Below are positions 1 through 59,200 of a stretch of DNA of 64,000 bases, piece after piece; the first letter of the stretch is position 1, and the number at the start of each line of letters is the position of its first letter. The DNA comes from Paraspadella gotoi (lineage: Eukaryota > Animalia > Chaetognatha). Made by a program: the position numbers and the translations under genes. Under the pieces are notes generated by a model. The model was not told the origin of the DNA. It ran no database searches and worked only from the letters and a program-made list of their open reading frames with translations. The DNA is taken from NCBI GenBank assembly GCA_051294375.1, contig CM119266.1, positions 2,345,008-2,409,007 on the forward strand, read 5' to 3'.

Positions 1-3000
1 GTTCGCTGCAAGAGAATCTGCACTTCCTCCATCTTTAATTTCTTGACGCGATTGAAGGAGACGTTGAAATCGTAGCGGAACGCCTCGTCGAAATCGCGCG
101 GCAGGCTCATCAAGTATTTGCTCGAGCAGTCGGCGCGAACTTTGTCTTCAGAGATTCGCAAACATTTGCATCTGTCGTCGCATTTGGAAACGAAACAAGA
201 ATACATCTCTGGAGTTGCCGAGGTGAGGCTCGATTTGGGCGAGGTGAGGCTGAAGTCAGTATCGGCGATCACTTTGCAGGTTGAGTTGCGAAAGGGAAAC
301 GAATCGTGATTCGTTTGACAGGAGATCACGTGATCGTCGGCGGAATTTTCCGTCGAGAGAGCAAGAGATTTGAGCAGCAAGGCCGAGTCTTGCATGTCGC
401 ATCCGTGACAAACTTGCCACTTTTTCTGATGGTGAAAATCTGGAAAGAAGACGCCGATGCCGGAGCAATGGTACAGTTTGACGAGGCAGAACAGGTGGCG
501 CAAGTTGTAAGAGACGAGGTCATTGTCCCCCAAGTCTGAGAAAAGGGCAATAAGAAGAGAAACGAAAAAAAAAGTGCGTACGTGATCTTTATTTTTATTC
601 GATTGTTTAAAGGACTTACCTATCGTGTATTTGTTGTTGGCCGTTATATTTTCGCACTTGAACATTTGTTCCTTGGATTTAATCAGTTTTACCAATCCAC
701 CTTTCATTCTCCTCAGAGATTCAAAATCACTTGGCAGAACCAAACTGCTGATGTTGTTTCTCTGGACACCAATGAACACCGACCTGTAGCCAACGTTTCT
801 GGACAAAAAGTCGTCGAAGATTCCGTCCGATTCGTTCTTGGCCTCAAACTCCGGCCACAGATTGAATTGCTTCAGCCGGTTGTCGTTTAACCGCAAAGCG
901 GACAAAGACGGCAGCAGACGGACCAAGTTGTCGATCCGTGAGATTTTGTTCTGAGCCAAAATCAAAAATTTGAGATTGGGCAAATTGTGAAACGTGTCCC
1001 CGTTCAAGGTTTCGATTCGATTGCCGACGAGATTCAAATGAATCAATCTGGGTAGATTTTCGAAGACTCTCGGTTCCATCGTGAAAATCCGGTTCATCAT
1101 GAGCGAAATCGTTGTCACGAATTTTAAATCGGAAAATATTCCTCGAGGGATCGATGCGAGTTTGTTGCTGTCCAGAATTATTTCCTTTAATGACATTCGA
1201 GCGAAGAATCCCTTTTGGACGAATTGGATTTCGTTGGCCGAAAGGTCGACCTCTTCGGTTTGATCCCCGACGAGGAAGTTGGACTCGTTCAAGAATCTCA
1301 ATCGACACTTCCAACAGCTCAATATCTTCAACTCGTCCGAGGTGACGTTGACGAAATCGACCATCGACTTCCACGCTTGCAGCTTGACGGCGTTGACGGG
1401 GCCTTGGAGGGACGTCAGAGGATTGGCCTCGAGGCTCAACTCTTTCAAAGTCGATTTGAATGCGAGAGGAATTTGAGTAAAGTTATTCTTCGTCAATTCC
1501 AATCTGGATCCTTCGGGAAGGTGGCTCAGCGCGCCGTCCGGGTCGATGACCGAGAGGCCTAGATGGCGCAAAGTCGCCAACGTCGGTTTGAGGAATCGAG
1601 TCCGAGTCCAGGAATCGGGAAGACGACCTCCGGGGACGCCTTTGCTGTTGTCGTAGCCGACGATGGAAAGGCTCGTGATGCTGTGAATTATGGAGAACGC
1701 GGGTGAAAATGAGTGTGAATATATCGGAATATTTCTAAACGACCACAAGAGCCTCATTCCAAATTTTTATGTTTTCGACGTCGCGGTCCTAAATCAACTT
1801 GATCAGATAAGCATATATCAAATCAAGACGATGTGGCGGTAGATTCACACCGCCTCACGTCCACCCTCGTTCAGCCAGCTCAGAGGGGGAACACGACATC
1901 CCAAGCGTTGTGTCCCATTCACAGTCCTAACGACTTCCCTCTGCGTTGGCAAAGCGAGTGACTGGAGGCGTCACTGAGGGTAGGAGGCCCCTGAAGCCAA
2001 CAGTGAGATGTCCCATCCCATTGGGCATCACAGACAACCCGGCTGTTGCTCTAAGTCTTTTATTCACTCACTTCATTTTCTTTCCCATCACGACGTTCTC
2101 AAGAATTCTCATGTCCTTCGAATGAATTTTGAGATTGATCAAATTTGGCGCCTCCAGGATCCAGGGGCGCGTAAAGTTGGGCGCGCAGGGGCGCCCGTAA
2201 TCGGGGCTGAAGTCCTTCAGTTCTAGAATCTTCAAGCGGCTCGTCAGGTTGGCCGAGAGCGGCGAGAGTCGGAAAGGGCGGTCGGCGTCGCAAACCATCC
2301 ATTTGATCATTAGCTATTTAACATGAAATTGAAATTTCTCTATATTACAAAATCATTATAATTTATATGCAAATATGTATCATAAATATTCATATGTATA
2401 CATATGTCATGTTTTTCTTTAATGAAATTGAAATTTCTCTATATGATAAAATCATTATAATTTATATGTAAATATATATCATAAATATTCATATGTATTC
2501 ATATGTCATGTTTGCCTTAAATGCCCATTTTTTTAAAAAAATTATGAAAAAGTTGACTAAATAAGAAAAAAAATTGGTTCAAAGTGATCAATTCAGATTA
2601 GGATATTGTTATCTATTCGTGATTTTATTCATAAAGGGAAATGATTGGGTTTTCGCATTGATTAGCACGTAATTGAACTAAATAGTTAATTAAAATTTTC
2701 GAGCATTAATTAAAACCGTTCGAAAACTTGACAATTAAAGGAAAGAGGGACCGTGAAGGGAAGTTCCTCCGCTCCTTTCTCCACGATGGCTGCGTCGACG
2801 ATCCTTTCCAGGTCCAACTCCTTCCTCAACAGATCCTCCTCCAAATCGCATCGGACGAGGAGACTCGATCGAAATTTGGTGGAGCGACACTGGGCGTCGC
2901 TGGAGTGAAGGAGCGAAAGAGCCAGGATCAAGAGACATAATAAGAGTAGTGGTTTTGTTGACGATGTCGTCGATAGGCGTCGCTTTTTCTTATCCTCGAT

Positions 3001-21790: not shown

Positions 21791-24700
21791 ATGGCGGCGG
21801 GAGGGAAGCTTTCCGCGGGGGTCCGAGGTCGGACCCTCGAGAATGGACTGTTTCCCGGCATTTTGTCGCGTATTTCGTCGTCAGGATAACGTATTTTTGT
21901 GTTTTACTCGTTGGTACTGTGTTTTGCTGATATTCCACCGATTTTAGGGTCAACATTTGACGGTTGCATTATTGTACTATTTCCAGGGGTCTGCTGGTAT
22001 TATAACTTTAAAGAGGTGGTGGGATGAATTTTGAGAGTTGTTCTTTCGTCATTTTCTAATAAATACCTTCTAAATACTCCATGAAGCAATAGACATGGTA
22101 TTCAAATTTTCAGTGAAAACTTTTTTTTACATTTTTGTCAGCGTTTTATTTTTATTCATAACCTCATCCCTATGAATTAAGAAGAATCAATCTAAATTTA
22201 CTTTTTAAGAAGTAGTCCTCATTGTGAAAAGGTTTTATTATTTAAAAGTTTGAGAACGTTTGTGATGAGTTAAAAACCGTGAAATAATTCTATAAAGTTT
22301 AAAACCAGTTTCCACGATTTATTTTTACCGCAACATGGTTTTTCCCAAATCATTCGCTCTTTTAGACCAAGGCAACGATCTTAAAAGAGCGGGATAGATA
22401 TGGCTGCAGTTTTGAAAACCTCATAAAACGTTCGATTGGGCTAAATAATATAATACGTGTCTGGTGCAAACAATTGCTGGATTGGGAACTTCATTGCTAA
22501 CAAAAGCAGCGCACAGAAAATGCAATACTAGTTTAAATAAAATAAAAATTTCAACGTTCCCGGACGGGCACTTTCGTCTTCACTCTGCGGAACATCGGCT
22601 TCATCGGAGGCGCGCCGATTCGTTCCGCGCCACCCTACCAACTCTGCCGCGAGTGACTCTATGGGTTTTGGCGCGGAAGCCTCCACTCTCGACGCCGCCG
22701 ATGCCTGCCACCGTCTTCCAGTTCTTCGCCCACAAGTTCTCTTCCTCGCTGCGTCGTTGGGAGGGGATTGACCTCTCTATTTTTGCCGCCGTCTTCGATC
22801 CGCGCCGCCATCGACCCTTCCTCCGCCATCGTCGTCGTCTGCGCCGGTGACGCGAGACATGGCCAGCCCCGCCCTGACCCTCGCCAACGCCCTGAACGTT
22901 AACGCCAACGGTCCTAGTCAAGCCAACTCGGCGACTCTGACGGTCGGGACGCCGGGAATCGGCGCGTCTCAGGTCGCCATGGTACGCCCGGTCTCGGGAA
23001 TGGCCGTCGCGTCATCCCCCGGGGTCCAGGTGGTCAACATGTCCTCCCCGCACGCTCCGACGCCGACCGTCATCGCCGGGGCTCAACCTCAAAAGATCAT
23101 GGGCCCCAGGATCCAAACCGCGGCGACACTTAGGATCCAGCCCGCGATCGCCCCTCGACCCAATGTCATTCAAATGACCGGACAGGTGAGATAAGCCTCG
23201 TTTCATCACTGATTACTGAGCGATCGTTGTAAGCTTTTGCTCGGTTGGGGATTCTACGGATTAAGCCGGAATAAGTTGGAAACTAAGATTTCTACCTCTG
23301 TAGAGTTAACAGTGAAAAAATATTTTCAATTCCCATAATACATGACCATTTGATGACAAAAAAAGCTGCCATTTGCAAACCGGTAGTGATTTTATTCATA
23401 ATGATAGCTAGTTTTGTAGACCTAAACTATTTGTGTAGTCTAACTAATTTATCATTTAATTATTTTTTTAACTTTGAGTAAAATTTTTTTAAAAAGTTTT
23501 AATTAAAATTCGGGTAAATTTACTATTCGCCGACCGTAACCAACCTTAGCTACCATCGGTCGGTGCTTTAATTCCATAACTTATGTTTTCCCTCTAGCGT
23601 CCAGTTTTAGTTTGCGCAGTAATATAAATATTCATTTTAATTTTTTATTTTTTTAAATTTTTTTATACATTTTTTGTCAGTTGATAAAAAGGTATAGTTA
23701 GTATTATTCAAAACGAGGCCTTAAACCTCCAAAGTCAGGGGCAAAATAGCTCATTTATTAAATGAGGCGGTGTGAATATACCGCCACAGGATAATTATAT
23801 TAGTTGTACCAATTTCATAACAAGTTTTATTTAAAATTATTACTTTTTCGTACGTTTTTTGTTAATTTTTGTTAAAAGAAAATCTAGAATATAAATTTTT
23901 GTACGTGTTTAGTTGGTAAAAAAATTCTATGTTCGAATAATTGTTTTGAATTTATTTTAATTGCCATAGGGGTTAATTTCGCTGGTTAGGGGGGGTTTAG
24001 GGGTGGTGAGGGTTTAGGGTTAGGATAATTAAGTAATAATATTTTTTTTAAAATAAATATTTTAAATGGTTTTTCAAAACCTTGGTCGGCAAAAGCAAAA
24101 TTTTACCTAAAATGGCTCATCACAATTTATTAATAACCTTAAACTTGCTCTGTTTCAACTGTCTTAATTAAATTAATTAAATTATACTATAGTGTTTGCA
24201 AGTACATTATTCTTTTCATATTTGCAAGGGCTTTTAGAAACTATTGACATTGATACTTTTGTATTTAAAGATTCTTTAAAATTAACAAGCTCAAACAAAA
24301 ATTTATACATTTTTTAAATATACTTACAATGGACAAAAAAATTCTTATATAGCTTTATGCCTTAATAATTATTTTTTTACTCTTTATTTATATATAGGAA
24401 AGGCCAAACAATTTTTTTTTTAATTTTAAAACCAGATTCAGATAACTCCTAAAATGTGGTCTCCACAAAGTATAATTATTTTTAAAATATTTTTATCATA
24501 AGTCAGTCAAAAATAAGAAAAACCATAAAAAATCGTTATCATCTTTTGATAATTTTATCAGTTTTTTTAGATTTTTATTGAGAAAACGTAAAAATTTTTA
24601 AAAGCTGTAATTATATTTCTCGTTTAACTTTTGATGCTCTATCAGAATCCATCAAAAAATTTTAATATTTCAAAAAAAATATTTTTTTTTATATATTAAT

Positions 24701-27700
24701 ATAATAATTTTAATTAGGCTAGTACCCTCAGAAAAAAATAATTTTGGACAAAAAATATTTTAATACTTTAATCTATGCTCATGATAGATTATTTTATCGC
24801 TGTATACATAAGCATTTAAATTTCATCGGCTATGGCTACTAGAGTTAAAAAATTGACTCTAAATGTAGTTAATTTCAATATGAGAAATCCGTCTCACTTC
24901 TCTCATTATTAAATTAAATTAAAACTAATTAATTTGAAATTTGTACATTTAAGATTAATAAAATCACAACGGGTTTGCAAATAGTTATTTGTAAACTATT
25001 TTACTTAATATAAATTCTTTTTTTCCAATTCGTAATTTTGAAATTGGTTTCATTAGTTAAAATGAGCAAAAACTGAAGATTTTCTTCGTTTATCCATTTT
25101 CAAAGTTTAAAATTTGTCAACAAATATTTTACAACTGTATGCATTGATTCTTTTAATACCTTAATGTTTTAATACTGTACTTCACTAATTGACAGTTTTT
25201 CCAAATTAATACTTATAAGAAAAAAGAAAATTAATATCGCAAAATCTAACTTCAATTTGATAAAAGAATAAATACTGGCACGCCTTATAACAATTTATTT
25301 GGTTTAGACCTATTTTTACCGCCATTTGTGCAGAAAAATGTTTGTATAACTACTTAAGTAAAACATGAATAACCTTATGCCGGTAAACCTTAATCTATAT
25401 TTTTTTTAAATTTTTGTATTGGTATAGTGCTATCCTTATAATATAAAAATATTTCAAAATAGATTTTTCTATAGTTTCTAGTTTTGTATTTTTGAATTCC
25501 CTTTCAAAAGTTGACAAAAGAAAATCTACAGATTGATAATTTAAAGAAAATATAAAGCATTTTTAAAAATTCTTTCATTAAGTTGGTTAAAAATGTAAAA
25601 AAATATTTACATAACCCAAAAATTATATTTTGAGCTTCATATATTAATTTTTGTGACTTTTAACCCTCCTAATGAAATAATTTTTCAGTTTATTTTTTAT
25701 CAACTTTTTACGAGGAACCCAAATCTGTTAAAAATCTTTAAAAAATTAACCTTTGTAAGTACTATGTATAAATATATTTTAATGCGTAAATTGATTAATA
25801 ATTAAAAATTTTTGTTACTCAGTAATGTTCAGATGAACTGTTGTTTCTTTACTTTAGGAATTTTTATTCAAGCTAAATTTAGGATTTTCACCTCGCTTTA
25901 ATGGCTACTAGTGCGACATTTAAGTTAGTTCTCTTTAAGTAACGTTTTTGAAAAGAATCGCCCAATTAATTTTAGAGATAAAACATTATTTTGGTTGTAC
26001 TAATTCCATGTGATTGGTAGCGCGGCTTGGTCCCTTCTAAACCAAAAATAGTTTGTGATCGCTAAATTTCACCGTATCCTGGCGATGTACCTGAGGGATT
26101 GTTGTGAAATTGAGTTTTGCCAAGTTCATGTTCATTTCTTTAAATTATATTGTTTTCATTATTAATTTGCTTCAAAATGTTCCCTTTCAGAATCAACAAC
26201 CGGTCCAACTTCCACCAGGATATACCATTCCACCAGGAACACTGCTTGTAAAAACCGATACCGGTCAGCTACAACTTATTCACACAGGCGCCAATCAAGC
26301 GGCCTTCATTACTCCGGGACGTAACGTTACCGGAACCACGCAATATAGGTTTGTACTATAAACCTTTATTTTTAAATAAGAAATAAAAAATCAATACATT
26401 GAGGCGCAAAAAAAAGAAAACACTAAGATATAGAAACATAAAACATGTATTTAAAAATACATAGTGTCTTTTTTTTTGGCGTTCTTAGATTGGACATTTA
26501 CAGACTGCACTATGCGTATGGTTAAAAAAATAGACAAACATTGTCTTCCATTTAAAAAAAATATCTTCTATATTTTATGAAATTTAATGTTGATAAACAA
26601 AAACGGAATCAAAATCTAGTTTCTGGAATATGGGAACAGTAAATATATTTTGAGTTATATGGTAGATTGTTTATTACTTTAGATTACTGCAAAGTTTTAT
26701 TTTTCCATTTCATGTTATAGTATATGATAATTTATTAGTGAGAAAGAGGAGCTCTTCTCATTAATGATAACACTAAGATATTTTTGTTGCTATTAATCGA
26801 CTCTTAGCTCGGGCTCAAGATTGCGCGAATTTCTCAGTAATAAAAAAAGACCAACTCTCTGGGCAACTTTTTACGATTTTAACATATTCATTATTCAATA
26901 TTCAATATGTAGTGTTTTTTCAATATCATTCAATATTCATTAAAAAATGTATCTATATTTCAGTACATCCGAATGAATTACAACAATTTTTTTTCTGATC
27001 GGTTCATTCCTGCCTTCGTTCGTTTCGCTGTGATATAAACTGTTTTTCAAGACATAACAGAAATTCTGATTGGTTGCCATACGCCTGATGTCACTTTTTC
27101 TTGGCATTTTCGGTAATCATATCTGCTACTAAGCATATTTACTATTTAACTTCGTTCCCTTCTGCCCTCGATGCTTTCAGAATGACAGCGTTTTTTTTAT
27201 TTAAAAACAAAAGACACTAACAACAATAAAATGTCAAAACCTAAGTTATAAGAAACTGTTGTGAATAAACGTTCAAGAACGTTCCAAGATAAGATGTCCA
27301 TAAAACCAAAAACAGTAAAATTAAAAAAATAAAAACATCTAGTCTAAATAACGTTAATAACGTTCAAAAAGTAATGCGCGAAAACAAAAAAAATACCGTT
27401 ACATTTAAAAATGTTAAGAACTAATTCATTAAAAACGATAAGAACAAATTGTTAGATAATTTATCAGTCAACAGCAATGACAAAATCCGTTTGCTTTCCC
27501 TTCAAAGAAATGGTTTTTGAAACTCCAATTTAATGTTTAATTATCCCGGATTATTCTTTTCAAAGAAGTATAGTTCTGAAATCATGCCATCAACAATACT
27601 GTCATCCAAGCATCGGTTTAATTTTTTAACTTTGAAGTATAATTTTTTTTCATGATATATCGTAACATTTTCTTTACAAATGCAAATAAACTTCTTAATA

Positions 27701-30700: not shown

Positions 30701-33700
30701 CTTTTGTAGTCAAAAACATTGTACATTAATACTTTGTGAAATAGAATACAGTAAAAAACATTTTCGTTAAAATAATAACATTTAAATTATTAAAAATTGT
30801 TACCTGTCTGCAATACTCATCAGTTTTAAAAACGTGACTCGTTTATTCAGATTCGCCCAAGCGATGCCGCCAGCTGCGGCCGCTGCGCCGCACCCGCCCA
30901 ATGGTACGGCGGCGCCGACTCCAGGCGCCTCAGCCATCGCCGTCGCGGGCGTGGTGCAGCAACCGCAGAGCATCGCCAGTGTGCCCAGCGCCGCCCCGAA
31001 TCACGTTCCATCCATCGCATCGGCGCAGGTGAGACGATTGGGTTCAAATTAAAGTCGTGTTTTTGGTTCATCGAAGCCTCGATTATGATAATTATTATGA
31101 AATCGAGAGAATTTGGAAGTTTCTCTGTGAGTTATGTGGTTGATTTCTTGTCCAATGTCCATTAGAAATGCAACTCATGTCATTGGTTTTCCCTTCAGCT
31201 CCGTCCGTAACGGGCGGCCGTGACGACGTTTCGTCGGCCCGTTGCGGCGTCGTCGGTTCCGGGACGATGCCTCCACCGGCGCTGCTCCCGGGCGCCCACT
31301 TTCATTCGGCTCAACCGCCCAAGTTCGGCGATGACCTCAACGCCGCTGCACATGCCAAAAGTTAGTAGTATGGGCAACAGCCGGGATTTGCCTGTTGATG
31401 CCCATTGGGATGGGGGCAATCTCACTGTTGCTTTGGGGCTCCGACCCTCAGTGACGACTCGCAAGTACTGGCGCGGTTCCCTAGAGACGGGTCTCGCTTT
31501 GCAACGCAGACGGGAAGTCGTTAGGACTGTGGATGGAACACTACGCCTGGGATGCGTGTGTTCCCCCTCTGGCAATGGATTTGGCTGAAGGATGAGTGGA
31601 CGTGAGGCGGTGTGGATATACCGCCACAGGATCCCCGGCCAAGACATCACTCAGGTTCCTCAAGCCTGAGAGGTGTCTGACAAGGACTGTTACCATAGTG
31701 GAGAGAGAGAGAGATGAGCGCGAGTTTGTGGGGGCATAGGCGTTTGTCGTACTACCCCAGGGGCATAGGCGTTTGTCGTAGCGTGACCCGAAGTCGGCAG
31801 GGCATAGGCCGTTTGTCGTAGCGTACCCTGAGACAAGGTTGCGTGTGTTCGATAGTAGGGCTCACCACTTATGGCAACAGCCGGGTTGCCTGTGATCGCC
31901 ATGGGATGGGGCATCTCACTGTTGGCTTTGGGGCTTCCGACCCTCAGTGACGACTCCAGTCACTGGCGCGTTACCCTAGGACGGTCTCTGCTTTGGCCAA
32001 CGCAGAGGGAAGTCGTTAGGACTAGTGGATGGACACTACGGCCTGGATGGTGTGTTCCCCCTCTGAGCCAATGGATTTGGCTGAAGGATGGTGGGAACGT
32101 GAGGCGGTGTGGATATACCGCACAGTAGCCACTTAAATATGCTCGAATATACTTTTTATTGATAGGGAAAGCCAAGCTAGGATGTGTGAAAAACTTATCT
32201 TGTAAAAGGGATGGAGACTTTAACCCACTAAAGTCTGTCCAAAATCAGCGGCAAAATTGTTTTTTAATGAAATGAATGACAATTTTTACCTTCGTTGTAC
32301 CAATTTCATACTCAATTACTCAATACTCATTCGCTACTCGCTTTTGTCTTTACCTTTTTTCGCTAATATTTACATTTTATATTTTAGCGAGTGCGTTGGA
32401 AAACGTGAAAAAGTGCAAAAACTTTTTGTCGACGCTGATCAAGTTGGCCGGAAGTCAACCCCAGGAAACGATTAAGAACGTTAAAGAACTCATTCAAGTG
32501 AGTAATCGTAATAAACTCAAACTCAAAGTATTGCGTATATATAGCTTTTGTTTCTCTTCTTCGCAGGGTTTAATCGACGGGAAGATACAACCGGAGAAGT
32601 TCACCGAGCAGCTTCAAATAGAGTTGAAGTCAAGGTGATGCCGACGAATCATGTCATCCAATCCAATTGCAGCCTCCTTACCTTTCAATCGTCCCCCTCT
32701 TACTTCTTCAGTCCGCAACCTTACCTGGTTCCGTTTCTCAAAAAATCCCTGCCGATGCTACGTCAGTCTCTGGCCGCCGGTTCATGGCCATCGAGGCGGT
32801 TCGAGCGCCTGCGGGTTTTCCGGTCGCCAGTATCGCCAGCGTGGCCGGAGCGACGTCGCTTCCAGGGGCATGGCAGTGATGACGAATCAGATGGGAGTCC
32901 CAGGGCAGCATCCGCTCATTCTGCAGGTTCATAAGGGAGAAACCGAGACCGACATAAACAAGTTTTATAAGTTTGTTTATTTTAATTTAACTGTATACAT
33001 TATACAGTGTACTACTGTCCTTATTGTTGAAACTGTGTTAATAAGGCGTAGTAAAATTTCTAAATTTAACTTTAATTAAAATTCTAAAAGTGAGAGAACG
33101 AATAATATTAAACTAATAAACATCTATGTAATAAAAATTTATAATAAATTTTACAATTTACGCAGTAGGCCATATTTATACTAGTACTATCCAATAAATG
33201 TTAAAATTTTAAAACAGTTTTTTCTAAGATTTTTTTGCAGATTTGAATTCGTCAGAAAAAGTTGATAAAAAGAAATATATCTTTTTAAAAAATTCCTTCA
33301 TTAAGTGGGTCAAAAATTAGAAAAAGCTATATTTTAAACTGAAAATTAACTTTTTATATATCAATATAGTTTAAATTTTTAACCCCTTAATGAAAGAATT
33401 TTTAAAAATGACTTATATATTTCTTTTATCAACTTTTGACGAGGAATTCAAATCTGCAATCAAAATTAAGAAAAGCCAATGTTGAATTTTTGCAATTTTA
33501 TAAGGATAGTACTATATATAAATATAGCCTACTGCGAAAATTGAAGAACATAAAATAATTTTTTTTTATAAATTAATATTACTGATGGTATGTTGTTCAT
33601 AATTGACATTTAGAATTTTTATATGTAACTTTCACTACGCCTTAGTGTTTAATTATAAGATTGCTAGTGAAGTTAATAAATTAACTTAACCAATTAAAAT

Positions 33701-40900: not shown

Positions 40901-43900
40901 CTCTGGAGAGAACGCGAGAGCGAGATTGATATCGGTCTCTACAGAGATTTAACGCGATAATAACCGAAAATAAGTTTGAGCAAACAATGCCGGATCTCCC
41001 CACCATCTTTAGCGGTAATTAATTAATTAATTAATCAGTCAATTCATTAATTAGTTTGATCCGACCTGTCTGTTTTTAGGTCTTTTCGTCACTGACCATA
41101 ACAAAAGCAACGACGATGATGGGGACGACGACAATAATGCCGATAACGATTAATTGATTGAATAATTAATAGATTGATTTTTGATTAATTCACTGATAAA
41201 TTAATTAATAAATTAATGATTAATTAATTAGTATTGATTTATTAATTAATACGTCTTGCATTTACAAATAATATAAAAAAACAAGCATAATCAATTAGTA
41301 AAACAGGTTTTTTGTTTTTTACATTTTAACTTATTTTCACTCAGACGATTTCATTGAAACTTGATATATAATAATATATATATATAATAAATACAATCCC
41401 CCCATCCACTCATGAGTAATTAGCGTTCAAATAGTGAAATATATATATTTTTTTCTTCCATTTAAACTCATTTCCACTCGGACGATTCTATCAAAACTTT
41501 GTTTCCAGCTTAATCACACACTTTTCTACCCACATACAAAATTTCAAGTCAATCGCCCCATACAATCATGAGTAATTGGCGTTCAAAGCTAAGGGGGTTC
41601 GGACGGACGAACATCAATTTTTTTTTCATAATTTATCATAATTTGATTTTCTGACATGATTTAAGTGACTTACCGATAAGATTGGGGGGGGCGGACCGAC
41701 GGACCGACAAAGTGAATTATAGAGCCGGAATCTGCTGTCAGCAGATCCGGCTAAAAACCTTGGATCTCTTGCCCTTATTTACCTTTCGTGAAGATGGAGA
41801 AGGCGTATCGTCTCGTGCTGGAAACGCACCTTAAACAAGGGGGTGGGAATTGTATAGAGAGGCCATCGACTTACCCTTCCGAGAAGGGTCTTCAGCCCTT
41901 CATTACGTATTCGGCTCTTTTTGTTCTCTGCCAGTCGGGGAAAAGAAAAAGTTAATCGGCTTTTTTCGGTGTTCGGTCGCGAGAAGATAGCTTCAGTGTC
42001 TGAACTCACCTACCTTACCACCACCACCACAATTTTTCGCAAACACTACTTTCTCGCCAGGTTGTTCCTATTTCCTTTCACCCTCGTCGTTTTTCCAAAG
42101 CCTATCATCTTTGACTTTCAGTCCATGTGTTTCTGTACGAACTTTTACGCTAATGCTTCGTGTACCGTGCATTAAAAGTTCGTTTTTATTTTACAGTTTT
42201 CTAACTTGGTGTAAAATTTTCTTTCGATTCGTTGTTTGGATTTGTTGTTGCCAATAAAAATCTTATTTTGTCTCTCAGTTTTCTAACTTAATTCTTTTTC
42301 TTTTTTGGACGACCTTTTCGCCTTAATTATAGCCCCAAGGTTTACAGTTGTCATTCAAGAGAGAGAAAGTGTGTGTGTTTAAAAAAAAACTGGTTTGATC
42401 ACTCAAACTTAAACAAAGAATCGAGAGAGCAGTTTACTGGAGATCTTTTTCCCTCTCTCTCGATCTCTCTCTCTCTCTCTCGAGTCGACTGGCCTCCAAA
42501 CCAGTGAGAATAGCAGTTAAATTTTGTTTTATTTTCGGAAAATGTTTCGATTTCAGAGTTTTGTTTTCTTGACAATCCAAAACCGAACCTACCGAACGAT
42601 CCTGACGATCTGTCCGTCCGACAGTCCGTAGCTTTGGCAGTCGTTCTCTCTCGATCTCGAGAAGGACTGTTTGTTGGGGTAAGTATCAAGTCTGATGGTG
42701 GTTTTCCGACCGCTCGGTCCCACCTCCACCATTCGGAAGGCGACGCAGTATCGCCTCTTCCACGGGGATCGCATCGCCTGGGGGGGTAGTGAGAGTTAGT
42801 AACCACTTTGTTGTTAATGTTATCGAAAAGTAAGTCTCGAAACTCCAGTGCGAATGTGGAGTCACCAGTGGTTTCGTGAGTCATCGAGAAATACTTTTGG
42901 GGTAGTGGTCGATATTTGGTTTTTTTTTAACACTCAGAAGTTTAAATATTTTATATTAAATAAGTAATTTATGCAACTGATTGTAGATAATCAATTCATA
43001 ATTATATAATATCAATGGAACATTTTAATTTTGAATAAAATAGGCGTTTTTTAGCGAAAAAGATTTGAATTTTATTGAACAACGATTTTATTTTAAATTA
43101 AATTAAATTTTCTTTATATTTTCCTCTTCTCGGGTTCTCTCGTTTTATTTTGCACTCTCGATCGTGATACCCCGCATATTTTTGGCACTATTTCATATTA
43201 ATTAAATTTTGTGTGTGTATCTCGTTCTACAGCAACACGGATATAATTTCTATTTAAAAAAACAATAATATAAAACAAAAAAGGAAATAAAATCGGGCAG
43301 CGGCCATGTCCGAGCTAGATCAACTTCGCCAGGAGGCGGAGTCGCTTAAGTCGCAGATTGAAGCCTCGCGTCGCAAAGCGGCCGACGCGTCCCTCGTCGA
43401 GGCCGCCCAACGCCTCGACGCCCTCGGACGCCTGCAGTTTCGCCAGCGCCGCACGCTACGCGGACACCTGGCCAAGATCTACGCCATGCACTGGGCGGCG
43501 GACTCGCGTAACCTCGTCTCCGCCTCGCAGGACGGGAAGTTGCTCGTCTGGGATTCGTACACGACGAATAAAATTCATGCCATTCCGCTCAGGTTTGTGA
43601 GTTGACTTTGGACAATGGAAGTTTGTGTCGAATTAATTATGAGTTTGATGTGATTTGTTGGGGATGTCTCACATTGTGAGTTTTTGTGACTTGTACTTAA
43701 GCAACAAGTTTGACCAATGAGCAATCGATCCATAAAATCACTTCGGGACATAAGGTCACTTTTTCTTGAATGGTTTCTTATTGCGTTTCTTCTGTTCTTT
43801 TTAAAGTATTCCCATTATATAAGAACACATTAAACAGTAAACATGCATATAATACGTATAATTATATATAATTATTCGTATATCTTAACTGTAAACGAAC

Positions 43901-45548
43901 TCCAATCGGACCTGTAATTATTCATATGGCTCCCCCCCCCCATTTTTTCCTCCAGATCGTCCTGGGTGATGACTTGCGCCTACGCGCCATCCGGCTCCTA
44001 CGTGGCTTGCGGCGGCCTCGACAATCTCTGCACGATCTACTCGCTCAAGAATCGCGACGGTAACGTCCGCGTCTCGCGCGAATTGTCCGGCCACAGCGGC
44101 TACCTTTCCTGCTGCCGCTTCGTCGACGACGCCCACGTCCTCACCGCCTCGGGCGACACCACCTGCTCCCTCTGGGACGTGGAGACGAGTCAGAGCGTCA
44201 CACGATTCTCGGGCCACGCTGGCGACGTCATGTCCGTCGCTCTCGCGCCCGATCAGCGGACCTTCGTCTCGGGCGCCTGCGACGCCTCCGCCAAGCTCTG
44301 GGACATTCGCGACGGATCTTGCAAGCAGACGCTGTCGGGTCACGAGCTCGACGTCAACGCCGTCTGCGTCTTTCCCAACGGCAACGCCTTCGCCACGGGC
44401 AGCGACGACGCCACCTGTCGCTTGTTCGATTTCCGGGCGGATCAAGAAGTGGCGCGCTACGCTCACGAGACGGTGGAAACGGGGGTGACGTCGGTGGCGT
44501 TCTCGCGATCGGGCCGGTTACTGTTTGCCGGATACGACGACTGCAACGTCCTTGCCTGGGACGCGCTCAAGGCGGAGAGAGTGGGGGTCTTGACCGGGCA
44601 CGACAATAGAGTCAGCTGTTTGGGGGTGACCGAGGACGGGATGGCGTTGGGCACGGGGTCGTGGGACGCCTTTTTGAAGATTTGGAATTGAAGACGGAGA
44701 GGGGATTGGCCTAATGGAGGTTGGGTGTCGAGTTTTGCGGGGGACGGGTTGAGTTGTCGCGAGTTGGAGTCGTTCGTTTAATTCGTTTGTTTCGGGCGGG
44801 GGGGGGGTGGCTTAAGTCAACTTCGCAGTTTTTTGAAAATTGAGCGAGTCTTTAAGTATGAATGGTATGTTATGATTTGAAATTGTCTAGTCAAGGTAAA
44901 TTTGTAATCGTTTTACGGAATTGAATCGTTAAATCGTGCCAAAAGGATGTTCTCCTGTCAATTGAGGAATATCCGTGCGTTGGTAATCCACACTCGGCTC
45001 GCCAATGAGAACAAGATTAATTTATCTAGGAGATAAAGTCTTTATTAAAGAGAGGCTTTATACTTTAAAGCTAATCGGCTTTAGGTCTGAGTGCGCGCAG
45101 AGGGAAACCCACTGCATTGGGAAGCGCATTCCCTTATTATGATTGTTTAAATGTTCATATGTATTATTTTTTTTTATTGACGCTTATTGCACAAAAGAAT
45201 TTACCTTTTTTATAACATTTAACTGTTGCTTGTAAAGTAAACAAAAAACAAAAAATGTTTGTACACTCATTGAACGGAGTTGGATACAAAATGTTCTTTA
45301 AAATCGCTGGTCGCTGGTTTGGGCTGATTTGATCAAAAACAAACAATAAAAACACGGTCGTAGATTAGCTTATACAATTTACGAACTGTAAATGAATTCT
45401 ATCATTTTCTTTATTTTATTATGTTGGATAGATTGGTCCGATGTAAAATACTCGCCTTGAAAAGACCCTTCTCCCTCGTGTGATCGCTCTTGACATCGAG
45501 AAAGCCAGATATTTCCCCGTCGTTTCCGTATTGAGAAATAAAGCTCAT
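37984..45548 (-). CDS. PH + IRS-type PTB domain docking protein (DOK/IRS-like adaptor)
   Basis: Approximate exons 45548-45456, 42777-42593, 41830-41783, 40902-40768, 40201-39975, 39755-39013, 38918-38228 and 38159-37984 splice in frame. PH domain: [10 protein letters not shown]...PWKRRYCV...IRLDTY...RYAFSIFT...[19 protein letters not shown] domain: [14 protein letters not shown]...[11 protein letters not shown]...EFRFFS. Disordered tail with YDVP x2, YDHV and YQRL tyrosine motifs. Confidence 0.8.
40969..41757 (+). mobile_element. Helentron-associated (HINE/DINE-1-like) non-autonomous element
   Basis: 5' aa(c/t)aagtttgagcaaacaatg, subterminal cggatct, (attaatta)n tract, ggac/gacc microsatellite, 3' hairpin gccggaatctgctgtcagcagatccggc, then taaaaa. 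Homologues at 53271, 56846, 12594 and 13840. Family assignment is inferred from structure. Confidence 0.75.
43306..44691 (+). CDS. GNB1: Heterotrimeric G-protein beta subunit (G-beta-1 class, divergent), 2 coding exons, nested in a DOK-like intron
   Basis: Exons 43306-43592 and 43956-44691: [12 protein letters not shown]...[16 protein letters not shown]...[10 protein letters not shown]...PLR|[13 protein letters not shown]...[31 protein letters not shown], with seven WD40 repeats. The symbol denotes family, not proven orthology. Confidence 0.95.
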
Positions 45549-50200: not shown

Positions 50201-53200
50201 TTACAGGTTTAGAAAAGTACATTTATTATGACAAAAAATAATTTTCTTTAGAGGAGCATTTTATAATATGAAGACTTTTCTGTATAACTTAATGATTTAA
50301 ATATATTTTCGTGATTTAATCAAAGCCATCCCTCCATTTAGTTCCTCCCTTCAAGTCGTACGCCGATGAGCCGGAGGCGGCGCCCACGCCTTCCTCGACG
50401 TCGTCGGCGGGGTCTTCGAGGGAGCACACCTTTGCGCGTCCCGTGCAGCCGGTCGTTGCCGCTTCCACCGCCAAAACGCCCGCGCGGCTCACTTCAGGGT
50501 CAGGGTCTCGGGCCACCATCCGCGCGGGCTCGGCGCACGGCGGATTCCCCAAGTCCGATTCGGGTGAGTGGAGTTGGTGACTTGGGAGAGCTGATTTTTT
50601 GGAGGCATAGTTGGACCTGAGTGTGTGGGTGAATGTCGGCTGATTTTTGTGTGGCCTTTATTTAGTGGATCGGAGTATAAAACCGTTTGACGATAAAATA
50701 AAAATTTTAATACCGTTTAAAATTACGCGCGCCTTAAATAAAAATGGGTGGAAAATACTCTGAACTATGCCAAGAATTTTTATGCTTCTCTTTAACTTTT
50801 ATAGATGTATCATTTGATAAATTACAATCTTGTGAAAAGAAACACTGAAGAAGGCGGCATCCACCTCCTGTTACTTGTCACTTTCTCATCAAGGTTTTAT
50901 TTTCTTATTTTTTTCTATTTTTTTAGTCTCTGGAGCAACGAACGAAGACGAGTTTCTCTCCGCCTTCGAAGACGTCCAGAGAGTTCAAGTTAGTTGTAAC
51001 CATTTTTGTATTTCATGGATGACAAATCGAATGATTCCATACATTCCTGTTTGCAGATTTATTCCGCGAAGGATTTAGAAGAATCTATGCGCCAAGTTAA
51101 AGACGTGTTAGCGGACGGTAAGTTCCAAGAAATAGGGGAATAATGTTTTATGGCAACAGACGGGTTGCCTGTGATGCCCATTGGAATGGGGCATCTCACT
51201 GTTGGCTTTGGGGGCTTCCGACCCTTAGTGACTCCTGTAACTGGCACGGTTACCCTAGAACGGTCTGGCTTTTCCAACGCAGAAGGAAGTCATTAGGACA
51301 GGATGGAACGCAACACTTTGGATGGTGCGTTCCCCCTCTGAGCCAATGGTATTGGCTGAACGATGGTGGATGTGAGGCAGTGTGAATATACCGCCACAGT
51401 CAGTTATTTTCGGCATCGAGTCTTAATGTTTTTCCACTTCGTTTTCCAGGCAACCTCGACTGGGAGAAACGCGTGGTGGCCATCAAGCGACTCCGCGGCG
51501 TCGTCTTGGCCGAGGGCCACACCAACTTTCCCGACGAGTTCTTTCTCTCCCTCCGAACCCTGGAGAATCCATTTATGACCACGGTGAAGGATCTCCGGTC
51601 GCAGGTCGTGCGAGAGGCCTGCGTCACCATAGCGTGAGTATAAGGAGGAAAGAGAGTGTGTTTATTGTTTTTATTATTATTATTATTATTATTATTGACT
51701 GTTTAAATCTACCGAGTACGGTGATTAAAAAGGAGGGATGGCTTAAAATGTCATTCGATCTTGCGACCCAGCCAGAACGACCATAGCCCTCTAGCTTCTC
51801 TCGCGAATAATTGTTAAAAATCGCGAAAAAATACTCTGTTTCTGACTTTTTTTGTTCGATCAATTAAGCCTTTCTAAAAAACAAACTTAGAAACTGGTTT
51901 TGGGAAAAACACAATAAAAATGATGTGAAACAGAACTCTAAATTGGTCACGCTCAAAAATTTTGATTTTTCTTTCTAGATTGTTTCGTTTCATTCCTATT
52001 CTAAAAGTCAACATCTATTGTTTCGTGATTTATTCCTACTCTGGCTTTTGAATTTAATGACACGATGCTAATTGGAAAGAACATTCTAACATTTAATGAA
52101 CCTATGCAGATCATTAATATTTAATGTGTACAATGCGGCGACTTGTTAATCACACACGTTTTACACTATTAACTAATAATATCGATATTAACCCCGGTAA
52201 CAAATAATAAACGGAAGTTAATTTAAGCGTTAGTTTTTTCCCGGTTGAATAATGAATTACATTCGGTGACTTTATATTTTTGAAACGACATCCATGTATG
52301 CATAAAATGTTCATAGAAAATATTTAACGTCAACACGAAGCCGTCGTGAGTAATGTAAATTTATTTTGTGGCGAATCTGCCTTTACAGAGTCGCCACGGT
52401 CTCGCTATTGAGTTCAACCGTGACGGCGGCGGCAATTGTTCCAGCCTCGACAGAATTTTGACATTGTCCGTTCGTTTTATGAGATTTGGGTCGCAGTTCG
52501 TTTTCCTTCTGTCCCTTTTGGATCTGCCTCACTTCGTCTGCGTTTTGAGACTTGACTTCGACGGACGTTGATAACGTTTCCTCGACAGCCAGCGTTGGAT
52601 TCTATTGGATGCATAGAATTGCTTGTGTATTAATATGTATATATTATTTTATCATTTTAGTAGAAAAATAAAAAAAAACTGTTTGCTTACCGTTTTTTTG
52701 TCTCCCTTGGAAACCGGTGAAAAATCGTCTTGAGCGAAAAGGGTGTTCTTTTTCGAGGAAGGTTTTTTGCCAGAGATATCCCATCTCTTTTTGGTTCCTG
52801 AATAAAAAAACATCGTGCAACGCTTCGCCTTCGCTTTTCATTTCTTACTCTGTCTCGATATTTAACGCACCTCGAATGTGAATAACTTCTAAAAAGGTTT
52901 TTCGAAAACCCGATGAAAAGGCACAATAGAGCAAGAAGTTGGTCGCCGAGTTTATGGTGGCGCTCATTATTGCCACCGAATTCAGATCGATCAGCCAGTT
53001 TCTCTGTGCAATCGAATTATTCAAAATTTATCTAGACATTGGCTTGTAAATTTCAAAAGTAATCGATGAGTTCTTGCTCACCTTGTTACTGTCTGTAGGG
53101 GTGGTGAGGATACTTCCTTGGTAACTGAGCGCCCAGATGATCGTTGCGACAATGAATGGAAGTTGGCAAACCAAAAAGAGAATAACGACTCCCACGCAGA

Positions 53201-56200
53201 TAACGTTAACGTGCGTATCCGTCTAAACATAAATGAATTTCGTTTCCCAGAAAAATTTAGTTCAGTAAATAACAAGTTTGATCAAACAATGTCGGATCTG
53301 CCCACGATCATTATCGGTAATTAATTAATTAATAATTAAATAATTCAAGTTAATTAGATAATTAATTTGATCCGAAATGTTTGTTTTTAGGTCTTCTCGT
53401 CACTAACCACGACAAAAGCAATGATGACGATGAAAATAATGACTTGATTGACTGATTAATTAATTATTGATTAATTAATTGATTAATTAACTGATTATTT
53501 GATTAATTAATTGATTAATTAACTGATTATTTGATTAATTAATTGATTAATTAACTGATTATTTGATTAATTAATTGATTAATTAACTGATTATTTGATT
53601 AATTAATTGATTAATTAACTGATTATTTGATTAATTAATACATCTTGTATTTACATTTACTATAAAAAGAAAAAGAAGCATAATCATTGATTATTAATCA
53701 ATTCGTGAAATAGGGTTTTTGTTTTTTCCATTTAAACACATTTCCATTCGGACGATTCCATCGAAACTTCATATCCAGCTCAAACACACACTTTCCTACT
53801 CACACACAAAATTACATTCCATTCCATCGATGCAATCACGAATAATTGGTGTTTTTTGCTAAGGTGGGACAGACGGACAGATATTTTTTTGAATAATTTA
53901 TCATAATTCGATGTTCTGACATGATATAAGTGAATGCCCGACAATATTGAGGGGGCGGACCGACAGACCGACAAAGTGAATTATAGAGTCGGGATCTGCT
54001 GATAAGAAGATCCGACTAAAAATGTCTTACTTTAACTTTTTTTCGTGATGACTCTGAAGAGCTGGAACCGTGTGAAGTTAGCCGCATTTTGACGAGGTGT
54101 CGTTTGCGTAGTGCGTAAATTATGAATGCGTTTAAAACCTTGATTTTGAGAAAATTTATGATTTTTAACGCCGTTATATTCTTTTCTTCGTGTTTTAGTG
54201 CTTACCAATAATATTAGAAGAGGTGATACAGCATAGAATCCGCAGTACATCCAGAGTTTATAGATAAGTATATATAGTCTGTCAATTTTAGTTGGTGTTC
54301 GTACAGTGTCGATAATTTCCCCAAAACGGGGTGCGTTATAAAGCACGGCACCGAACACTATGAGTCCAACAACCTTTGTGGCTTTGGGGACGTTGCACAT
54401 CGTCGCCATCTATAAAGAAGGAAGCGAAATATAAATGGGTTTTGAAATTATTCCGCTTCATGAAATTTCAAAGTTGATCGTCAATTTCGCATTTAATAAA
54501 TGAAGCCTAATTTGTCTATTTAATTATTTGCTTGTTTATTTCCTAATAAATTAATAGAATTCTATTAACTAATAAATAAAAAGTTACAAGAATATGTGAA
54601 ATTGCGTCATAACTACAATTACCCTATGAGGATGACAGACGGCAATGTAGCGATCGACGGAGACGCAAACGACGAGCCAAATGTTGATCAGCAAATTAAT
54701 GTAGTGGATCTGGTAAGTGAATTTGGCAACGGTTCTGGTCCAGTCACAATCATAGATGGAACGGAGAGACCAGTAAAACGTTTGCGTCACCAAAAAAATG
54801 AGATCTGTCACGGCGAGCGAGAGAAGATAAACCACAGTCGAAGTCCGTGGTCGCTGGAACATAAAAATAGAAATTAACTTAAAAGCAATGTTTTCATTGT
54901 GGCATCTCCTTTTCCGATCTTCAAGTGTCAATAAGTAACGGTTGGTTCAAAACTGTTATAACTTATTGGAATCTTATTTTCGGCGTCACTTAAAAAAAAA
55001 TTTATGCTTTAACCTTCTTTTTAAATTTTATTAATGTGCAACCTACCCCAAAGAATTTTTATAAACATTGAAAGTGTTTATGCTTTTTACGATGCAGCTA
55101 AAAGCCGTCAACAGAAATTATTTTTCTTAAAAAGACTCAAAAACGTTTCATTTTAATAGCCGAAATGTTTTTTGGTTACAAGCCCCAGCAAGATTTGTCG
55201 GTCGGGAATTTTGAAACGCGAAACTCTTGAAATGAGAAGATGTTACTCGAAGGCGGACATTCGCGCGGTCGCGGACCTGTCTAACGAGAGTGAGCAGAGT
55301 GAAGACGTTGCCGACGACGCCAAAGACTGCGATACAGGTGGCGGCCACACCCTCCACTGCATATTTGAACCGGTACTTTTCGTGTTGGTGGACCCAACCC
55401 AGGTACATGGTGCCGTTGACGACCGAGGTCGCGGCGCTGCCGTTTGTCCACCGGTAATCGTCCCCTTCGCTGTCGAATCGACTCTGGTTCCAGTTGGAAG
55501 TCATTGCGAATTTTTTGCTGATTTAAGTTTCGGTGTCTTTGCGGCCAACGTCAGCTGTCGCTCGTGTATATTTTCGTAGTAGCACGTTTTAAAAGAAAAC
55601 TTTGGGCCTGGCATTAAGTTGTTGTTTTGTTATTTTAGCGTGAATAATATTTTTTTCATCTCTTGGGTGGCGCTGGCAGAGTGGATGCGAGATTGTGAAT
55701 TATTTAGGAGGCGACAAGTTTTTTCTTCGCGCTTCCAGCTCGAAAATGGTGCGCTTGAACGCGAAAGTGACGCGCGGTGACAACGCTCGTACGTTTCTGT
55801 GAAATTCTAAACGGAATCACGCGCTACTTTTTTTCTTTTTCTCTCGGAGACGCGAGAGAGACGCGAGTTTTGAGTCGTTTCTCGCGACGCGGAACGACCA
55901 CGATTACGACGACGGCGGCGTGGTCCGGATGACGACGATGTGAACGACGATGTAGACGACGGGCTGTTAAGAGGGGACGGTGGCGCGTCTATGATAAGCG
56001 TTGAATACTGAGGAGGGGAAAACGTTTTATATAAAAAGATAAGTGGGTAAAAAAAAAATTTCGTGGACGGAACGACATTATTTTTTCGCTAAGTCAATCC
56101 GCCTCGGCCACAATTGCGAAACGATATATTATGACGTTTCGTTCACGATAATTTCCCCCATGAGAAACCCATAAATGTCGGTTGAAGATTTTTCTCTATT

Positions 56201-59200
56201 AAAAAAGCGGGTTCTCGCTTGTTTCTTTGCCGGTTTTAACGAGTGTAGCTGAGTCGTTACGTACTCGAAAAAGGTGACACAAACGCTATCAAAACCCGCC
56301 GCCATTCCCGTCTCCCACCCCCTATTTTTAAATCGTGGGACCGTCGTCGAAATTTTATGCGCGCAGATAATTTTTTTTCCTTTTGGTCGAATGGCGCGGG
56401 TTTTGTTTTTGGAGAGTTTCTTTGCTCTTCACTCGAAAATTTCGAAGTCGCGCCGGGGCTCGAGAAAACTTCGTTTACGAAGACGAATGGCTTAAAATGG
56501 GGGGGCGTGATGCAGAGGAGAGGAGAGATAATTCCCCTCCCCCCCTATTTTTTCTACTCTTTTTCTCTCCTTCAAGTGATAGATGGGTGTTGATAATGAG
56601 CGTTAAATTCGATGTCAAAAGGGGGTTGTTTTTTTATATCAAGACGAAAAAGAGGCTTTTGTTTCATAAGCTTTTCGAAAAAGGGGGAGAGGACTTGGGC
56701 TTTTCAATTCATTATCGATGATGGGGTTTTGTTTGCTGCGATACTGCGATGGGCGGAGGTGATAAAATATGAGGATTATGAAGGTTCCGGTCGGGGTATG
56801 ACTCTTCAAAGATTTTCCATTTAATACAAATTATGTAAATTTTTATTTTTAGTCGGATCTGCTTATTAGCAGAAATGAGTTTAAATGAAAAAAAAAATTT
56901 TACTATTTAAACGCCAATTATTCAAGAGTGGATGGGGCGATTGACTTGAAATTTTGTATGTGGGGAGAAAAGTGAGTTTAAATGGAAAAAAAATTCTCTA
57001 ATTGATTATGCTTCTTTTTCTTTTTATATTAAATGTAAATGCAAGATGTATTAATTAATCAAATAATTAATCAATTAGTTAATTAATTAATTTATCAGTC
57101 AAGTAATCAATCAATTAATTATTCAATCTTTCAATTTATTTATTTTTTTATTTTTTTATTAATTATTAATCAATTAATCAAGTCAATCGTTATCGGCATA
57201 GTCGTCGTCGCCATCATCGTTGTCGTTGCCTTTGTCGTGGTCAGTGAAAACAAACATTTTGGATCAAATTAAATATATTATCAATCAATTAATTATTAAT
57301 AATTAATTTATTAATTGATTACCGCTAATGATATTGGGCAGATCCGACATTGTTTGCTCTTTTTTAGTGATATAGCGTGGAGAAGTTTTGTAGTGAATGC
57401 CGATGATTCCGGTCGATTTCGAATAAGTCGAGGCGGTTGCTGTTGGTGGATCATAAATGTAAAAACCAGTAGGATTTTTTTTTCATTATCTTATCTTATC
57501 AATCTATTTTTTTTTATTTTTTTTAATGTTCGAGGTCAATCGGTTTTATTTAATTTTTTTTAATGAACGTACTCGTCCGGTTTCAGTATGGTAAAATATC
57601 GTTGTTCTTGAAAGTTGATTTATCATTTTTCCTCCTCGGCGTTGGTAAATATGAGGCTCGATCTTCGGCTTTTCGGGGGCTTGAGATATGGCACAGACAC
57701 TTTTCTTTCTGGGGATCATTAATTTCTGTCGGTCGAGACCTTTTCTCCCTCGCATATCGTCAATTAGGAAGCAGCGTCGTCGATGCACCCAAAAATGATA
57801 TTCTGTTGACTTTATCTTGAACAAACTGTTGGTTTTATCCACGATCAGTTGTTTACATTTCAGTCAACTTGGAAAGAAGGGAGTCGCAACTCTAGGGCAC
57901 GCGTTTCATGTCCCTTTATCAGTTGCTGTACTTTTTAAATATTATACGTAACTGAGCTGTTAAAATAGCTTTGATTCATGACGAAAGGATGATTAAGAAG
58001 ATCGCTGTAATCGATTATTACAGGACTGATAACGGAGCTTTCCTACGGTGCGTTTGTCACAGTTATGTACTTTCCTCATAATGATTAACAAAAATGCTGA
58101 AAAAAACCCGATATAATTATAAAGATACTATTTTTTTTCTCTTCAGTTATCTCTCCCAGTCCCTCGCATCAAAGTTCGATCATTTCGCGGAGATGGTTCT
58201 CCCTACCCTCATCTGTCAACTCCCCTCTTCCGCCAAAATCATGGCCACGTCTGCCTCCACCGGTGAGTGGTAATCGCGGTCTTGAATTGGTTCCCAATTC
58301 GAGTCATTCATTTTGTTCACGCACTCATCCTCACTTCTCCACCTCCTCAGCAATCCGTTTCATCATCGTCAACACCTTCTCGACGAAACTGGTACCAATC
58401 TTCATCTCCAACCTCTCGTCGAAATCGGCGGAGATTCGGAGGCGAACCTCGGAATTCCTCGACCTGCTCCTTAAGAATTGGGAGACGCACTTTTTGGAGC
58501 GACATCAGGGAACCCTGAGCGAAGCTTTGAAGAAGGGACTGTCCGACGCGGACGCGGAGACGCGAGCCTTTTGCCGGAAGGCCTTCTGGTCGTACCGCGA
58601 CCACTTCCAAGATCAGGCCGACGCCCTCATGAATTCACTGGAGCCTTCCAAACAGAAACAACTCCAGGTGAAAGGAGGGTGTTCTTTAGCTTTTTGGGGT
58701 AATATAGGATGTGATGTGACAATTCGTGACAAAATCTAAAAGAAGTGCAATTAAATGAGGTTTTACCCCCCTCCCCGATCTTCACGTTTAAACAGAGCGA
58801 ATTGACCGGGTCCACTTCTCGGGGTTCTCTCGCGCCGCCGTCGTCGTCGCGCTCTCGTTCCGCAGCTCGCCCCGCGACCACACACCGCGCCGGTCTGGGG
58901 GGCCAGGGCGCCTCTGCCGCTCCCGTCTCGCAGCGCCCCGGCACTTCAGGTATAAAGCGAATTTCAAATCTTAATCTTATATCTAAATTAGATGATAGTG
59001 GATCATCATAATCTTGATCATCAGGGTCGTCGCGAGTCGGTGGTGGCGTCGTCGGCGTCACATCGTCGCCTTCGTCGTCGTCGCTGGCGTCGTCGCGCGC
59101 CAGGTCGGCGTCCAACGATCGAATTCTCGACGAGAAACCCGCGGCTGGAAGAAGGTAATGTTCGGAGAGAGGAGCTCAGGGTTGTTAATTGTAAAATTAA

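Follow-up and report, generated by a model that had tools for sequence, protein, structure and literature searches.

Twister-like motifs in both LTRs of a short non-coding element of the chaetognath Paraspadella gotoi suggest an animal LTR retrozyme

In the Paraspadella gotoi genome, a window of 64,000 nucleotides (the whole stretch of DNA analysed here) contains a 756-bp non-coding element with two LTRs (31369-32124, minus strand), and its 5' LTR carries a motif with all 14 of the fixed twister nucleotides, read from the sequence in type-P5 order (minus strand, 32001-31921). In our judgement the fold is likely real and twister ancestry very probable; both the fold and the cleavage are what we infer from the letters. 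Ribozymes in the two LTRs of an element that codes for nothing would constitute the retrozyme layout. We hypothesize that the element is a twister-based animal LTR retrozyme, propagated by cutting, circle formation and copying, which is the best reading and probably the correct one.

The twister-like motif of the 5' LTR

The motif (31921..32001, minus strand) is supported by sequence, descriptor match and chance test. It is closed by P5 (GUUGGC at 32001-31996 with GCCAAC at 31926-31921, 6 of 6 pairs); the termini lie in P5, which has pair probabilities of 0.95-1.0 in folding, and P1 is capped by a loop. Following P5, GA (31986-85) aligns with the GA-NNN of phage type-P5 twisters, and G31986 is the predicted general base, a role taken from Table 1 of PMC5408937. 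Next come CCG, the 3' strand of T1 (31984-82, 3 of 3 T1 pairs), the 8-nt P1 region UCCUAGGG (31981-74), U^AA (31973-71) with the cut U^A predicted at 31973/31972 from the motif parse, GC as the T2 partner (31967-66), P3 (CAGUGAC at 31965-59 with GUCACUG at 31951-45, 7 of 7 pairs), and AGG-G-UCGGAAGC-CCCA as P4/L4 (31944-31929). Within the latter, G-UCGGAAGC (31933..31941) comprises the invariant G-C pair, L4 with the T1 5' strand CGG, and the GC of T2, these features being assigned after section 11 of PMC5408937. Both halves of T2 are present (GC at 31967-66 and at 31934-33), and P4 consists of the invariant G-C and two of three other pairs, the outer pair being mismatched in both window copies that parse.

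The preliminary description had proposed a type-P5 fold with a compensated T1, and this is supported as the best account of the letters, since order and spacing fit the Rfam Twister-P5 consensus and section 7 of PMC5408937 and chance is unlikely; the letters and the full lengths of P3 and P5 were likewise as described. T1 (CGG/CCG) forms three of three Watson-Crick pairs, a statement of complementarity only. The T1 exchange is compensated as proposed, but only two of its three pairs are swapped relative to CCC/GGG, and the first C-G, kept in 9 of 9 rows of an alignment of window copies and phage P5 twisters, is retained. Measured against the pair types most frequent in phage P5 twisters, two T1 pairs and one P4 pair are altered on both strands in the window copies, although covariation counts against the phage rows are partly circular, those rows having been chosen for T1 pairing. 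P1 is minimal, as stated earlier; with three base pairs it would leave a 2-nt loop, so that it has at most two pairs around 4 nt. The proposed 4-nt P2 proved to be a family feature, present in contigs, but it is broken in the assembled sequence of this copy, with only 3 nt on the 5' side and a surplus base on the 3' side, and the pair adjoining GA is a C.A mismatch.

A type-P5 descriptor, defined as the 14 fixed letters, three Watson-Crick T1 pairs and at least two of three outer P4 pairs, matches two places in the window: the 5' LTR motif and a solo LTR at 51.2 kb, which also holds 14 of 14 fixed nucleotides. Five GU-NNN-AAGCC cores occur in the window, and only that of the 5' LTR motif adds P3 and P5 helices of at least 6 pairs. 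Spacing across P2 is canonical in the solo LTR and in the contigs, and one base short in the 5' LTR copy as assembled.

The host element and its genomic context

The 5' LTR (31870..32124, minus strand) is 255 bp long with TG...TA ends, its boundary is supported by contig loose ends at 31869-31872, and the predicted cut lies at LTR position 152. The usual LTR ends are TG...CA; the TG...TA ends of the element may help to identify its helper. The 3' LTR (31369..31628, minus strand) contains a second motif (about 31427-31505), indel-damaged as assembled; as previously noted, the U preceding AA and one A of the loop are missing from it. A PBS-like TGG motif follows the 5' LTR by 2 nt (31858..31867, minus strand) and shares its strand with the motifs of both LTRs. 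The internal non-coding region of about 240 bp (31629..31869, minus strand) holds short repeats, a CT tract and a weak purine run; the polypurine tract is accordingly weak, a run of 5 purines ending 3 nt short of the 3' LTR. The insertion is flanked by the TSD CTAC (32125..32128 on the 5' side and 31365..31368 on the 3' side, minus strand).

Two older solo LTRs are present in the window. The one at 51149..51398 (minus strand) has canonical spacing with T1 and core intact and P2, P3 and P5 decayed, and the one at 1832..2053 (plus strand) has lost the T1 partner, P1, the cut site and P2 by deletion. Neither carries a TSD, so that one of three insertions has one, and as assembled none of the four window copies has an intact motif. 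A further LTR fragment of 30 bp (23763-23792, minus strand) corresponds to the 5' end and the three internal bases preceding it, and includes the LTR-opening GGCGG/CCGCC hairpin.

The two longest ORFs overlapping the element have no Pfam match, and no tRNA gene was detected in the window. On either strand of the element there is neither a CUGANGA motif nor an Rfam hammerhead, the twister-like motif standing in its place. A likeness of the element to 5S rRNA was considered and was not borne out by Rfam, which gave no 5S or tRNA match at E<=10; a short partial 5S promoter could escape such models.

All three LTR-bearing insertions (31369-32124, 51149-51398 and 1832-2053) are intronic and antisense to the host gene, the hosts being a TAF4-like gene (TAFH, E=0.0025), CLASP and a minus-strand gene deduced from splice signals. 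Such placement would be expected if the cleaving strand were selected against in pre-mRNA, and is also usual for LTR elements. Elsewhere in the window, a long uninterrupted G-protein beta-subunit reading frame (43918-44691, plus strand) is 71-77% identical to most of the animal G-beta sequences listed, its top-scoring match bearing a plant label at 69% identity. Exons of a rhodopsin-family GPCR (7tm_1, E=1e-14; 54032-55522, minus strand) lie between the CLASP exons at 51.5 and 58 kb on the opposite strand, as a nested gene. By sequence, the G-beta frame and the GPCR exons mark the host as an animal, and G-beta does not discriminate among phyla. Two AT-rich interspersed repeat families have three copies each (4425-5010, 25423-25900 and 33073-33646; 40969-41757, 53271-54022 and 56872-57359); with some copies inverted, both are likely non-autonomous DNA transposons.

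Chance, covariance models, folding and the family form

To estimate chance occurrence, the core was planted in first-order Markov sequence and the fixed letters, P4 of at least 2 pairs, T1, and P3 and P5 of at least 6 pairs each were required. The full pattern was found in 5 of 4.2 million planted cores at window composition (6.9e-6 per window) and in 0 of 4.8 million at element composition (<1.9e-6 per window), with descriptor thresholds that were fixed after the sequence had been seen; without the P3 and P5 requirement, 3-8e-3 matches are expected per window. Over about 250,000 windows, 0.5-2 chance matches are expected, and genomic context therefore matters. Of at least 120 viral loci matching the fixed letters when T1 is left free, 80 were evaluated: T1 was present in 10 and P4 as well in 7; of the 7, 6 also had P2, 1 also P3 and none P5. 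The six loci with T1, P4 and P2 (T1 CAC/GTG, CTC/GAG or CCC/GGG) look like real P5 twisters by sequence. No twister with T1 CGG/CCG was present among 12 viral and 10 metagenome pattern matches. In the phage material, contigs L023 (60-179) and L026 (60-159) carry tandem type-P1 twisters 48 nt apart, and contig L061 has two type-P5-like twisters (40-94 and 451-506) about 410 nt apart.

The covariance-model search proposed in the preliminary description gave no twister match, either in Rfam (at gathering or at E<=10) or with a model of our own. At the gathering threshold, Rfam returned no match of any kind in the whole window, and at E<=10 the element and the solo LTR yielded only 6 and 2 unrelated weak matches. 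The motif is below the gathering threshold of RF02684 (37.6 bits) and is not a member of that family by score; as a control, 5 of 15 phage loci scored above Twister-P5 gathering, at 40-56 bits, and phage loci L022 and L024 passed Rfam gathering despite a 3-bp P2. Our own model, built from 8 phage P5 twisters with P1 left unpaired (3 of 11 were dropped owing to MAFFT misalignment), matched the window at 7 places with E<=10, but at no LTR copy. The construction of the Rfam model, with an 8-bp P1, no P3 and T1 as plain letters, suggests why the motif is missed, and the penalties it incurs would appear to be a deletion, a 21-nt insertion, four compensated changes and indels.

Nested folding, which leaves pseudoknots uncounted, favoured a long CCG/CGG hairpin in the 5' LTR copy (-27.4 kcal/mol) over the twister scaffold (-17.1 kcal/mol). 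Pair probabilities in this copy were 0.09 for P4 and at most 0.12 for P2, against 0.46-1.0 and 0.47-0.9 in the phage controls, of which 4 of 4 fold both helices; the folded copies carry errors or decay and do not represent the majority form of the family. The cut-to-cut unit is 494 nt as assembled, with 57% GC, and is 59% paired as a circle (z -1.9), below the >70% quoted for animal retrozyme RNAs (PMC4918200). Neither the monomer fold (z -1.8/-1.9) nor the whole-LTR fold (z -1.6) is significant. Three G.U pairs gave an apparent sign of selection on a helix joining the LTR 3' end to internal sequence, but 12 of 200 shuffles in one test and 50 of 60 in another did equally well, and the helix was rejected.

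Aligned with each other (258 of 260 bases of the 3' LTR), the LTRs show 26 gap events against 5 substitutions, and few substitutions with many gaps suggest sequencing error more than age; unpolished long-read errors may thus affect repeats in this assembly. Parts of the element were detected in nine sequencing runs of one organism from three studies, and contigs aligned to it from four runs numbered 4255, 60, 348 and 1745. These numbers imply a large family, from which no copy number follows. Runs X2 and X8, of similar size and under one organism label, gave 4255 and 60 contigs, respectively; family abundance may differ between populations, or the library types may differ.

An extra base at 31969, which restores a 4-nt P2 5' strand, was read in 4 of 4 runs, in run X2 as an insertion with a depth of 115,308 of 276,728 in 52 contigs. 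Loose contig ends at 31970 (62 contigs in X2 and 14 in X1, which give the proposed 3' strand) and at 31512 (30 in X2, 16 in X1) likewise agree with the 4-nt P2 strands of the preliminary description. From insertion and loose ends together it follows that the family form has canonical spacing and three P2 pairs plus C.A; the broken P2 of the 5' LTR copy is not the majority form in contigs of the four runs. Variant counts are based on 40 of 69 substitution rows and 12 of 81 indel rows. Those 40 substitution rows include none at the 14 fixed or 6 T1 positions and 3 within the motif (P3 loop, one P2 base and AAA linker), and the 51 LTR bases downstream of the motif likewise have 3. No compensatory change within the family was seen in contigs of the four runs. 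The family is very uniform, too much so for a core better kept than the rest of the LTR to be demonstrable.

Comparison with known systems, proposed mechanism and meaning

The motif shares with Rfam RF02684 (type P5) the order P2-3', GA, T1, P1 hairpin, UAA, P2-5', GC, P4/L4, as well as the fixed letters and the first T1 pair C-G, and natural copies of the RF02684 type vary T1 two-sidedly (CCC/GGG, CAC/GTG, CTC/GAG), as the element does. In contrast to the model, the element has T1 CGG/CCG, a P1 of 2 bp where the model has 8, a C.A mismatch at the foot of P2, a 7-bp P3 that the model does not contain and a closed 6-bp P5; it also scores below the family threshold and resides in an animal LTR. 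The motif would appear to have the sequence-readable features of the twister class, with type P5 assigned by topology, and we make no claim that type P5 is new to eukaryotes. A further comparison is offered by the twister T-variants of Schistosoma Perere-3 (Liu et al. 2021, PMC8501958), which are likewise linked to an animal retroelement and have a weak or variable P1. Their P3 3' strand GUUACUG and AAA linker (Table 1 of that paper) resemble the GUCACUG and AAA of the element, whereas they are of type P1, have T1 CCC/GGG, and occur as a single copy at the 5' terminus of a non-LTR element that is autonomous. In its P3 3' strand and AAA linkers the element is closer to Schistosoma type P1 than to phage P5 twisters, most of which have no P3.

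At the level of the element, plant LTR retrozymes (Cervera et al. 2016, PMC4918200; PMC9695139), as described there, have the same non-coding two-LTR design with a ribozyme in each LTR, and share the 4-bp TSD, PBS-like motif, solo LTRs, GC content (57% here) and a cut-to-cut unit without terminal redundancy. The element differs in being animal, in having a twister rather than a type III hammerhead, a weak PPT and a PBS-like motif not matched to tRNA-Met, and in size (255-bp LTR and ~495-nt unit, against 300-400 bp and 600-1000 nt in the same sources). If active, it would by analogy work like a plant LTR retrozyme, although its lack of a hammerhead places it outside that group. Metazoan non-LTR retrozymes (Cervera and de la Pena 2020, PMC7229834) share the animal host, the repeated ribozyme and a short non-coding unit, but consist of type I hammerheads in tandem repeats and, according to that paper, have no LTR, PBS or PPT and a GC content <50%. 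The animal TRIMs Helenus and Ajax (Kojima 2024, PMC10886601) are equally short non-autonomous LTR elements with a PBS, Helenus with 4-bp TSDs; their LTRs contain tRNA- or 5S-derived promoters, none of which was detected in the element, and four motifs of the element are absent from the supplement of that paper.

According to the mechanism we propose, a transcript through both LTRs would fold the twister twice and be cut at the same U^A each time, and a host ligase, for which RtcB is a candidate, would then join the ends of the ~495-nt cut-to-cut unit to form a circle. Cleavage would leave 2',3'-cyclic phosphate and 5'-OH ends, the known products of twisters (PMC5408937). The P5, P2 and T1 halves at the ends of the unit could re-pair and bring the cut ends together. 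With a weak P2 and another hairpin in competition, cleavage may be slowed, or the closed circle may be protected from a second cut; in the RNAs of plant retrozymes the hammerhead is predicted to be kept in a blocked form (PMC4918200). The circle would be primed by a tRNA at the PBS and copied past one round, rebuilding two LTRs, as in the plant retrozyme model (PMC7761336, PMC4918200), and reverse transcription might be supplied by a Gypsy-type helper retrotransposon, given the 4-bp TSD and by analogy with PMC4918200. Since the cut-to-cut RNA has no terminal redundancy, the usual strand transfer cannot copy the unit, and the presence of an active ribozyme in each LTR would be consistent with a copying route that runs mainly via the circle. 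Tandem twisters yield circles in mammalian cells (PMC7229834), and P1 has two pairs or is dispensable in known twisters (PMC5408937). We give slightly better than even chances to a more specific proposal, that an animal type-P1 twister independently gave rise to the P5 permutation and that the element is a natural twister-flanked circular-RNA retroelement missed by covariance models; independent permutation of an animal twister, as read from sequence, is a lead and not a result.

Weighed against this mechanism, the element could be inactive or nearly so, an ordinary TRIM that acquired a twister, since detuned, and that copies itself by linear strand transfer. The C.A in P2, the 2-bp P1, the competing hairpin and the lack of a match to the Rfam model or our own favour such detuning, as does the consideration that efficient cutting inside the LTR would destroy a linear template; twisters at the 5' ends of non-LTR elements, known in animals (PMC8501958), provide a possible donor. 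However, the majority form of an expanded family keeps all fixed nucleotides and the two-sided T1 change, whereas a functionless motif in a master lineage would be expected to lose some of the 20 positions, and we consider this explanation rather unlikely. Alternatively, the ribozyme may be active but only trim, freeing or destabilising element RNA from read-through transcripts or providing a 5'-OH, with no circle, a role that HDV-like and twister ribozymes are reported to play on non-LTR elements (PMC7761336, PMC6765202, PMC8501958) and one that would suit the only moderately structured monomer and the intronic position of the examined copies. Against this, the motif sits in both LTRs, and cutting would deprive the RNA of the redundant ends on which linear LTR copying depends; the intronic copies are antisense to their hosts, so host transcripts would not contain the active strand. 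Trimming alone seems improbable to us.

Finally, the twister words might be present by chance in a GC-rich hairpin of the LTR, formed by CCG-U-CCU and AGG-GU-CGG and closed by the P5 helix. Folding predicts this hairpin as the minimum-energy structure, and it could account on its own for the complementarity of CCG and CGG; covariance-model support is absent, and many windows were read. It nevertheless leaves unexplained the 14 fixed nucleotides at canonical spacing and the flush 7-bp P3, and it is no more stable than shuffles (z -0.74), giving no sign of selection on the hairpin; we consider a chance origin very improbable. A twister-based retrozyme copied through a circle is retained as the best reading.

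The literature describes plant LTR retrozymes with hammerheads, animal non-LTR retrozymes, and twisters on non-LTR elements. In the portion of the open literature covered, there is no twister in LTRs and no animal LTR retrozyme, and neither is reported in the passages considered of bioRxiv 10.1101/2022.07.19.500677, PMC13725137, PMC11722881 and PMC10085705. The literature covered splits retrozymes between plants, with LTRs and type III hammerheads, and animals, with type I hammerheads and no LTR, PBS or PPT, and places twisters at non-LTR 5' ends; an LTR element of an animal that bears a twister in each of its LTRs would not fit this division. If the proposed reading is true, the circle-based LTR strategy would be independent of the ribozyme and not confined to plants, and twister would gain a second concrete biological role. 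The motif would also offer a natural P1-minimal, T1-swapped variant for mechanistic work, Rfam models would be shown to miss such copies, and, if the reading is true, a whole class of ribozyme-bearing animal LTR elements may have been overlooked.
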